From assembly GCF_013167455.1 (NCBI RefSeq), contig NZ_CP038328.1: a stretch of DNA of 64,000 nucleotides; one strand, given 5' to 3'. This document shows, in pieces, positions 6,001 to 8,033 of the stretch (the stretch's first letter is position 1; every line of letters starts with the position of its first letter). The stretch is from Escherichia coli O157:H7 (lineage in GTDB: Bacteria; Pseudomonadota; Gammaproteobacteria; Enterobacterales; Enterobacteriaceae). Position numbers: made by a program.

Positions 6001-8033
6001 ACCGCTGAGCAGATGCAACATTCTTTCCAGGTCAGCTAAGCGATCTGCCTGCATTCCACTGATAAGATGAAATCTCCATCTGTCCCATCTCACCAAGTTG
6101 TTGACGATAATTTTACTGCCGAATTTACAGGGGGAATTGGTTTTGTAATTCCGTTCGGCCCTCTGAAGACGTTGATCACCCCACGCTCAAACACTTCATC
6201 CTTACTCTGGTGCAGTTGTTTGAATGCATTCATGATATTCGCCTCGCTGATTTCCGGAATATTATCGTACTCCAGTGAGCGGTACCATGTATCCTAGCCC
6301 TGTGCATCCATCAGACTCAGCATCCCGGAGCGTTGCATCAGGTCACGCCAGATTTCGCAGTCGAGGTTGCGGGTGATGGCTTTCATTGCGGTTTCAGGTT
6401 TCTCCATCAGCCAGCAGCCGCAGTGAAAATCCTGTTTCATCGCCCGGTCCAGGGCGGTTTTGCCGCCAATGTCTGCTGCTGTCAGGACTGAGATTTCTGC
6501 CAGTTGCCGGATAAGCGTTTCGGTTTGTTGCAGTGCTGCATTCCGTACCGTCACAACGTGTCGGATACTGGTGGAGCAGATAACGTCCGTATGCCCGGTG
6601 TCCACTTCCGGACGGGAGATTATGATGCCTGACATTATCGGTTTTCCTTTTGGTTTATAAACGAAAACGCCAGCCCTGTTCAGGCTGGCGTCAGTGGAAT
6701 GAAGTATGGTGAGTGAGACTCACCGGTTCTGTTGCAGAAGCTGCAGTTGGCGCAGGGTACGGACATCTTCCCTGACCTGTTCGATACAGGGCAACAATGC
6801 TGCCGAATCCGTTTTATCCTCATCGTTGTCGAAGATAATTCCGGATTCGCTGTCGATATTGTCCTGCAGCCACGCAATCAGAATATCCAGTGCTGCTTCC
6901 GGGGTTAATGATGTCATGTTGTTCCTAGTTACCAATTAAAAGTGGGTAAACCTGGCAGACATCCGGCACTGGCATCCAGATGAATGAGACTGACACCATA
7001 ACGCCGGATGAGTGTGACGACCAGACGACGGAACGTTTTTGACAGACCCAGGCGTTTAAGCCGCAGAACCGGGTACGACCACGCATCGGTACGCAACAGA
7101 TAGCCGTTACCGGTAAAATGAATCCATTCTGATTCACCGAAGTCACTGGTCTGGTGTGACAGCGAGTACAGCCAGGCGTTGTCCGTTTCCGTGATATGTG
7201 CGGTACTGCAGCGTATGCCGGTAAGGGCAGTAAATGGTGGCGTGCAGTCTGCTGAGGTCCGGTCAGATTCATCAACAACACGAAGGGAGTAGCCGTTATC
7301 GCAGACCATGTTAATCAGTTCAGCGAGATTAACACCATCAATGTCAACGACAATTCGCCCCATATTCAGTGCCTGTACGTTAACGCTGTCGGCTTCCAGT
7401 GTCAGGGCCAGTTTCATCATTTCGCCTCCGGATGCTTACCCAGGGTAATGTTATTTACCGTTCTGTAATTGTCGCGGGTCATCAGGCCGGTCGCCCTGCG
7501 AGCCCGGAGGATATCGATGCTGTTTATTAACTGAGAGCGGGTACAGGCGCTGAATCCCGGCTGGTCGGTACGCACCAGCACGTATTTTTCCACGAGAAAG
7601 TTCACCGCATCACACAGTGAAATACCTGCCTCAATATGCTGCTCAATCACACGTTCATCAGCGAACGGTGTGTCATTCAGCGTGAGGCCGTAGTGCTGGT
7701 CCAGCAGACGGCCAAGCAGTGTCTGCCAGATGGTGATGGGAGACGGGCAGCGCGATGCCTCCCGTACGTGTGTATCGGGTAATGTTTTCATACTAAAGTT
7801 TTTCCTGATATGCAGAGATGAGAAATGGGGAAGTGGCGTGGTGAAAACACCAGGCCGGAGCAGAAGGTTATTCTGATGATTTACTTTTTCGTTTCGGGCG
7901 TCGGATAAACAGCCATATAAACGTAACCTCGACTGCCGAGGGTATCGGCTTTGCAGGTCAGCCCTTTTGCATACAGCGTGACGGTATGCTGATGGCGGGG
8001 ATTCAGCTCACCGCTGGTGAGCATGAGTTCCAG

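Follow-up and report, generated by a model that had tools for sequence, protein, structure and literature searches.

An intact cbtA-family toxin gene and a truncated antitoxin gene at the decayed island end between selC and the LEE of Escherichia coli O157:H7

Introduction

How does a bacterial chromosome come to hold an intact type IV toxin gene behind an antitoxin gene that has lost its 5′ part, and why would such a toxin do no harm? The question is raised by a cbtA-family gene in a 64-kb stretch of the E. coli O157:H7 chromosome, which we refer to throughout as the window; all coordinates are positions in it, and every gene and element placed below lies on its minus strand (-). The original prediction, made from the sequence alone, described an intact toxin gene, the last ~50 codons of a cbeA/yeeU-type antitoxin gene, and an IS911-like insertion that had replaced the antitoxin 5′ part and the native promoter, and it offered three outcomes: the toxin is silent, is driven by an outward IS promoter, or is neutralized in trans by a paralogous antitoxin. 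The orphan toxin and its truncated antitoxin are already known, in that both are recorded in public annotation and belong to a well-studied family and genome; RefSeq PGAP labels the former “TA system toxin CbtA family protein” and the latter [quoted passage not shown]. We report here the anatomy of the locus, its breakpoints, the inventory of its paralogues, and its distribution in the lineage. Our reading, to which we assign a probability of roughly three in four, is that the locus is a tolerated decay remnant without a dedicated function.

Results and Discussion

The toxin gene (ECs_4539; WP_000854712.1) occupies 7791..7417 (-) and encodes 124 amino acids in an unbroken frame, as had been predicted. 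Its product matches Pfam PF06755 (CbtA_toxin) from end to end (model positions 1-112 of 112, E=5.6e-62) and is 89% identical to K-12 CbtA, 94% identical to the O157 paralogue in SpLE1, and 98% identical to the toxin of the closest intact locus. As judged from the family matches of the toxin and of the antitoxin remnant described below, the assignment of both is a matter of homology and not of a chance pattern. A scan with the NCBIfam HMMs gave no match for the toxin, the remnant, or the three neighboring ORFs, the island integrase being the sole match; this blank says nothing against the family assignment because NCBIfam holds no HMMs for these families, while Pfam does.

In residues 5-27 the window toxin has the form DTHVREASRCPSP, with Cys15, whereas K-12 CbtA has VLPGQAASSRPSP, with Arg15. 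In K-12 CbtA, R15C weakens MreB binding, and toxicity is abolished only in the double mutant R15C/F65S (PMC5624674). We considered Cys15 as an R15C-like inactivating change and rejected it: Cys15 is natural in YkfI and YpjF, both still toxic dual inhibitors (PMC5624674), and it is also found in the intact O157 paralogue. F65, which is needed for FtsZ binding in CbtA, YkfI, and YpjF (PMC5624674), is invariant across an alignment of seven homologues that includes the window CbtA. The toxin gene differs from that of its closest intact relative, in strain DETEC-P829, only by V19I, A71V, and one synonymous change. An allele already inactivated by these two private substitutions would make neutralization unneeded, and the ratio of two nonsynonymous changes to one synonymous change, together with the presence of V19 in all six other homologues compared, lends this idea what support it has. 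Both changes are conservative, however, as read from the alignment; position 71 is variable (A, D, or V in the seven sequences), neither F65 nor any of the conserved core is altered, the Pfam match covers the whole model, and the K-12 toxin had to be hit at two sites before toxicity was lost. We regard a dead allele as distinctly unlikely. No evidently inactivating substitution was found either pairwise with the closest relative or in the seven-sequence alignment, so far as the sequence can tell cbtA should still encode an FtsZ/MreB-binding toxin, and we infer that its toxicity has been retained, toxicity in this family being seen as growth inhibition and lemon-shaped cells when the protein is overexpressed, as with K-12 CbtA.

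Upstream of cbtA, beyond an 89-bp spacer (7792..7880, -) that carries the cbtA ribosome-binding site (AGGA), lies what is left of the antitoxin gene (7881..8033, -). The spacer is base-identical to that of DETEC-P829 and close to that of K-12 CP4-44. The remnant has 50 sense codons (8033..7884) and a stop codon (7883..7881), corresponding to residues 73-122, and the predicted figure of about 50 codons is thus exact. It covers Pfam PF06154 (CbeA_antitoxin) only at model positions 53-100/101 (E=2.6e-21) and pairs with residues 73-121 of YeeU in an alignment to its solved structure, 2H28 (E=3.5e-25). A complete CbeA/YeeU domain spans ~101 model positions in proteins of 105-124 aa, and the remnant lacks such a domain, the first 72 codons (5′ 216 nt) of the gene being missing. 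It is a pseudogene piece of a family member and is nonfunctional as a member. A search of the whole 64-kb window for 16-mers from the missing 216 nt found none, and no intact antitoxin gene stands upstream. The 50 residues that remain are identical to the C-terminus of the intact antitoxin of the DETEC-P829 module and ∼90% identical to residues 73-122 of K-12 CbeA. We also tried to read the Arg and Met residues that differ from K-12 CbeA as pseudogene drift, which is ruled out by the same residues in the intact DETEC-P829 antitoxin. An AlphaFold2 model of the intact antitoxin, built from a five-sequence alignment, had a mean pLDDT of 39, too low for any structural argument.

Compared with the CbtA/CbeA (YeeV/YeeU) module of K-12 CP4-44, the window locus thus shares a toxin of equal length, an 89-bp spacer, and the yeeU-yeeV-yeeW gene order; it differs in having no antitoxin residues 1-72 and in the deletion of the upstream yeeR/S/T-type genes. 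The order and orientation of the module are kept, but the antitoxin gene is cut at codon 72/73 by an insertion sequence, ISEc31.

A 4.2-kb query around the cbtA locus finds matches of 100% identity in many E. coli O157:H7 chromosomes, those of Sakai and EDL933 among them. In the Sakai annotation, the selC region of the window is described as “phage-like element SpLE4, LEE”, and cbtA and the antitoxin remnant sit in a short prophage-like stretch between selC and the LEE core. When the LEE of EDL933 was first sequenced, this selC-side stretch was given the name 933L. The tRNA-Sec gene selC (10734..10828, -; ARAGORN, Rfam RF01852), the integration site of the island, is the only tRNA gene that ARAGORN finds in the 64-kb window. 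A tyrosine integrase gene adjoins it, as expected of a CP4/P4-type element (ECs_4534, 393 aa; 9357..10538, -; NCBIfam PRK09692 integrase domain, E=1.5e-94).

Downstream of cbtA the distal module of such elements follows in canonical order (antitoxin, toxin, DUF5983, DUF957, DUF4942), as it does in SpLE1 and in the intact loci L003 and L010, the latter being the DETEC-P829 module. The DUF5983 (yeeW-like) gene (163 aa; 6929..7420, -) has a start codon that overlaps the cbtA stop codon (ATGA), and its place in the gene order is that of intact modules. The DUF957 gene (65 aa; 6720..6917, -) is open by ORF analysis and in RefSeq PGAP. The DUF4942 gene (5677..6635, -) is fragmented, with an internal stop, and is annotated by PGAP as a pseudogene together with two short “hypothetical” CDS; its counterpart in SpLE1 is unbroken (843 bp). 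Between the remnant and the LEE core lies ISEc8, of the IS66 family (3168..5609, -; Sakai locus annotation, coordinates minus 401). The proximal 933L/SpLE4 element has both a deleted interior and a broken DUF4942 gene, the latter a further decay of the same remnant that carries cbtA. We read the locus as what decay has left of the distal end of a selC-borne CP4/P4-type integrative element (933L, part of SpLE4), beside the LEE.

In place of the interior stands ISEc31, a 1261-bp element of the IS3 family (8034..9294, -) in the ISfinder-based Sakai annotation and in PGAP, and present in one copy in the 64-kb window. Its right repeat (8034-8059) abuts the antitoxin remnant; the left repeat lies at 9269-9294, and the two match at 20 of 26 positions. 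The element has the terminal inverted repeats, the overlapping orfA and orfB with a −1 frameshift motif, and a length within the ~1.2-1.5 kb of its family: orfA runs from 9258 to 8908, orfAB runs by a −1 frameshift to 8042, the A6G motif AAAAAAG is at 8962-8956, and PGAP remarks on a “programmed frameshift” in the transposase. With two overlapping ORFs, the A6G motif, and TG...CA-type terminal repeats it is like IS911 and the rest of the IS3 family, and “IS911-like” is a fair loose description, although the element is named ISEc31 and not IS911 in the database and this copy has no 3-4 bp target duplication. We take its repeats to resemble those of IS911.

At the right end, homology to three intact loci stops exactly at 8033/8034, where the terminal repeat TGTAGTGG... 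begins. The left end tells how the junction arose. No target-site duplication surrounds ISEc31, its flanks being CAG and ACC, which is consistent with an IS-adjacent deletion and leaves the family membership of the element unaffected. The DNA beyond its left end (9295..9356, -) belongs natively to the 3′ side of the island integrase gene, and it aligns from query position 1, at 92-93% identity, to selC islands that lack the IS; it contains no antitoxin sequence and is the other breakpoint of the deletion. With no target duplication and integrase-flank DNA on the far side, we conclude that the whole island interior was deleted and that no simple insertion took place. The antitoxin gene was indeed cut at the IS, as predicted, but not by an insertion into it; the best reading of the event is an IS-associated deletion that reaches from just behind the integrase gene to antitoxin codon 72.

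We also considered an inversion or a displaced antitoxin 5′ half. The genome count gave two places per O157 record, the junction and a second place; the latter was taken as the 3′ end of cbeA in SpLE2 because it is the sole place in a strain that lacks the junction. From these two places we infer a single ISEc31 end per O157 genome, which, with no 16-mer of the missing 5′ part in the window, led us to reject both arrangements.

Intact modules are arranged in the order Ag43, DUF905/DUF932, antirestriction, JAB/RadC, DUF987, antitoxin, toxin, DUF5983, DUF957, DUF4942. In the mechanism that we propose, the ISEc31-associated deletion would have removed everything between the integrase 3′ flank and antitoxin codon 72, which by comparison with the intact relatives would comprise the Ag43, DUF932, antirestriction, RadC/JAB, and DUF987 genes, the antitoxin 5′ part, and the operon upstream DNA, and would have left the downstream cbtA-family toxin gene intact. 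The predicted replacement of the antitoxin 5′ part and the native promoter is borne out, since the first 72 codons and the upstream operon DNA, with any native promoter in it, are gone. The closest relative that we found, the leuX-island module of DETEC-P829, is 99.2% identical over cbtA, the spacer, and the antitoxin 3′ part; what sets it apart from the window locus is a complete 122-aa antitoxin, V19 and A71 in its CbtA, and the presence upstream of the DUF987, JAB, antirestriction, DUF932, and Ag43 genes. Relatives of this type were found with a 660-bp query at an E-value limit of 1e-300, while a chimeric query (window 6929-8033 joined to the upstream part of L003) returned L003-like loci only.

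The junction itself creates a 54-codon ORF (8045..7881) that encodes MTTT followed by the last 50 antitoxin residues, and one may ask whether it still gives antitoxin activity. The ORF is in frame, all 50 residues recur unchanged in an intact antitoxin, and its TTG start inside the IS right repeat overlaps the orfB stop codon (TTGA), so that reinitiation after orfB could occur. Yet 59% of the protein is missing, down to the partial Pfam coverage given above, no Shine-Dalgarno sequence can be read before the TTG, and translation of orfB itself depends on a rare frameshift. Because the antitoxin folds as one compact, RelE/YoeB-like domain (PMC5086665), its C-terminal 41% is unlikely to fold. Residual antitoxin activity from this ORF strikes us as scarcely credible.

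We next turn to transcription, on which two of the three predicted outcomes depend. A strict sigma-70 scan of 7300-9400 on either strand gave 0 sites, and a relaxed hexamer-pair scan gave none between the IS end and cbtA (8032 to 7780), with which a silent or weakly expressed toxin is compatible. The relaxed scan did return a promoter-like site at the left end of ISEc31 (TTGGCC-16-TATCCT, with TG), and some weak ones toward the end of orfB, within its final 150 bp (8182-8117), for example TCAGCA-17-TACAAT at 8166-8138. The right repeat carries an outward TTGACC, whose counterpart in IS911 provides the −35 hexamer of the circle-junction promoter. At a spacing of 16-18 bp from TTGACC the flanking DNA offers no usable −10, the candidates there matching at only 1-2 of 6 positions, and a hybrid outward promoter on this hexamer, one form of the second predicted outcome, is not supported. 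Low-level read-through into cbtA is possible because the transposase gene is codirectional with it and the one terminator candidate between the two is a weak 6-bp hairpin (7941-7927) that the intact relative has as well. Together, the weak promoter-like sites near the IS right end and read-through could give some cbtA transcription. Since the upstream operon is lost and cbtA has no promoter-like sequence of its own, at most weak read-through would reach it, and its expression is probably low. We found no expression records for ECs4539 or Z5091-Z5093 in the literature text or in the supplements of two EHEC transcriptome/translatome studies.

These same features can be turned into a different proposal, in which the IS drives the orphan toxin, either through transcripts that run on from the transposase gene or from a weak outward promoter close to the right repeat, and the toxin has a role in the physiology of the cell, be it stress tolerance, growth arrest, or stabilization of the LEE-adjacent region. 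Codirectional genes with no strong terminator between them and the weak sites at 8182-8117 would allow for this, and in K-12 toxin deletions reduced oxidative-stress resistance (PMC5371832). Against it, no hexamer pair reaches the consensus threshold, the outward TTGACC has no −10 partner, and the neighboring genes are decaying. We consider such a role unlikely, and the distribution data below bear on it further.

The remaining predicted outcome, neutralization in trans, gains support from the search for paralogues that had been suggested. In Sakai, SpLE1 (at serX) carries an intact antitoxin gene (ECs_1405, 124 aa) and an intact toxin gene (ECs_1406), the product of the latter being the paralogue that shares 94% identity with the LEE toxin. 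The other island, SpLE2, occupies the CP4-44 site beside yeeX and carries an intact cbeA (ECs_2805, 122 aa, L62P relative to K-12 CbeA) and a toxin gene (ECs_2806) whose frame is lost at about codon 74 through the deletion of 1 bp. All three modules are alike in family, gene order, and position at a CP4-like island end; SpLE1 differs from the window locus in that both of its genes are intact, and SpLE2 in that the antitoxin is intact and the toxin frameshifted. The inventory in Sakai is thus two intact CbtA-type toxin genes (ECs_1406 and ECs_4539) and two intact antitoxin genes (ECs_1405 and ECs_2805), with one unpaired member of each kind, and the decay of SpLE2 and SpLE4 forms mirror images.

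In K-12, CbeA, YafW, and YfjZ each neutralize all three toxins (Wen et al., PMC5371832), and CbeA protects via FtsZ/MreB, not via the toxin (summarized in PMC5624674). Because type IV antitoxins act on the targets, through FtsZ/MreB bundling, and not on the toxin, ECs_1405 and ECs_2805 could protect in trans, and by analogy with K-12 we expect the orphan cbtA to be covered by them. The harmlessness of the locus would then have two reasons that add up: a toxin gene with neither its upstream operon nor a promoter-like sequence of its own, reached at most by weak read-through from the transposase gene, and protection by two paralogous antitoxins. Even without trans-protection, an orphan chromosomal toxin of the CbtA family would likely be tolerated, to judge from K-12, where a triple antitoxin deletion grows normally, toxin transcripts are low, and the operon is autoregulated by neither partner (PMC5371832).

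The inventory also invites the idea that the three decaying modules of O157:H7 form one distributed system, in which the LEE toxin without an antitoxin and the SpLE2 antitoxin without a toxin are complementary parts. If so, the SpLE1 and SpLE2 antitoxins, up to 3 Mb away, would be conditionally indispensable, and a cross-island addiction would help to retain the islands or would couple island loss to growth arrest. We hold this to be very improbable.

Of 5426 complete E. coli genomes, 271 carry the exact ISEc31/antitoxin junction. Strain CB9615, of serotype O55:H7, matches the window base for base over positions 6085-8949 and shares with it both the junction and the CbtA protein accession, and the antitoxin truncation therefore predates the O55:H7/O157:H7 split. 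ISEc8 is absent from CB9615, which places its insertion later than the truncation. The toxin ORF is intact and invariant in about 270 genomes, across O55:H7 and O157:H7, which could hint at selection and has to be counted in favor of an expressed toxin with a role of its own; this invariance is a weak test, however, because, in so young a lineage and for so short a gene, conservation does not signal selection. In O157:H7 strain Z866 the whole remnant is lost, a P4-like element with a different integrase lies between ISEc8 and selC, and the LEE is kept. The orphan toxin is therefore dispensable, which again speaks against a physiological role beside the LEE and agrees with a tolerated decay remnant.

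As such a remnant, the locus illustrates the decay of a CP4-type island end through IS-mediated deletion, and it suggests how a type IV toxin can outlive its cognate antitoxin, since protection is generic and available from paralogues. Its practical use for O157:H7 biology is in the bookkeeping of toxin and antitoxin genes; were the orphan toxin expressed and active, it would be a modest curiosity for LEE-region stability or stress physiology. A counterpart exists in YagB, the “orphan antitoxin” of K-12 CP4-6 (PMC5371832), which is likewise an unpaired member of this TA family, left over as its CP4-type element decays; there the toxin is lacking, and in the window locus the antitoxin.

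The ISEc31/Antitoxin Junction and the Flanking Module

Fusion of ISEc31 to the antitoxin remnant produces a 54-codon ORF (window 8045-7881, minus strand). Its TTG start lies within the right repeat of ISEc31, where it overlaps the TGA stop of orfB as TTGA, and the frame then continues through the 50 antitoxin codons. No obvious Shine-Dalgarno sequence was found for this TTG-started ORF. Within ISEc31 itself, the 5' portion of orfA contains, on the coding strand, a full-length, high-scoring Rfam match to RF01387, the Salmonella "isrC Hfq-binding sRNA" family (window 9104-9226, minus strand; 150 bits, E = 1e-37). 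From this match, RF01387 would seem to represent mRNA sequence of IS3-family transposases.

The closest intact relative found, the leuX-island module of E. coli DETEC-P829, is >99% identical across cbtA, the spacer, and the antitoxin. When the DUF5983 gene downstream of cbtA is compared (window 6929-7400 vs 8556-9047 of the DETEC-P829 locus), identity drops to ∼90% past approximately codon 15. This drop suggests that recombination left a breakpoint here and that the module is a mosaic.

Insertion Sequences and Strain Differences

A copy of ISEc8 (window 3168-5609) sits between the DUF4942 pseudogene and a partial IS3 adjoining espF. This copy is missing in O55:H7 CB9615 (546-886 of the locus extracted from that strain), and therefore the ISEc8 insertion is younger than the antitoxin truncation. 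In the record of O157:H7 493/89, a sorbitol-fermenting strain, an additional IS30 insertion splits the 4.2-kb region in two (NZ_CP038412.1 132017-137437).

The SpLE2 module of Sakai (ECs_2805/ECs_2806; 34756-35590 of the Sakai locus, L007) has decayed as the mirror image of the LEE-adjacent locus. Its cbeA (ECs_2805) is intact, with a GTG start and an L62P substitution relative to K-12, whereas the adjacent yeeV/cbtA (ECs_2806) has lost 1 bp near codon 74, which shortens its product to 87 aa; the Sakai annotation lists the gene as a "toxin" CDS.

In O157:H7 Z866, a P4-like satellite stands in place of the whole remnant (NZ_CP062766.1 133975-144587; 13976-24588 of the extracted locus, L013), replacing the integrase, ISEc31, the antitoxin remnant, cbtA, and the yeeW-like gene. 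The satellite encodes a primase-helicase, an Icd-like protein, ogr/Delta, Psu, and a DEAD-box helicase accompanied by a hypothetical gene; its integrase differs from that of the remnant. ISEc8 flanks the satellite on one side and selC on the other, and the LEE is kept.
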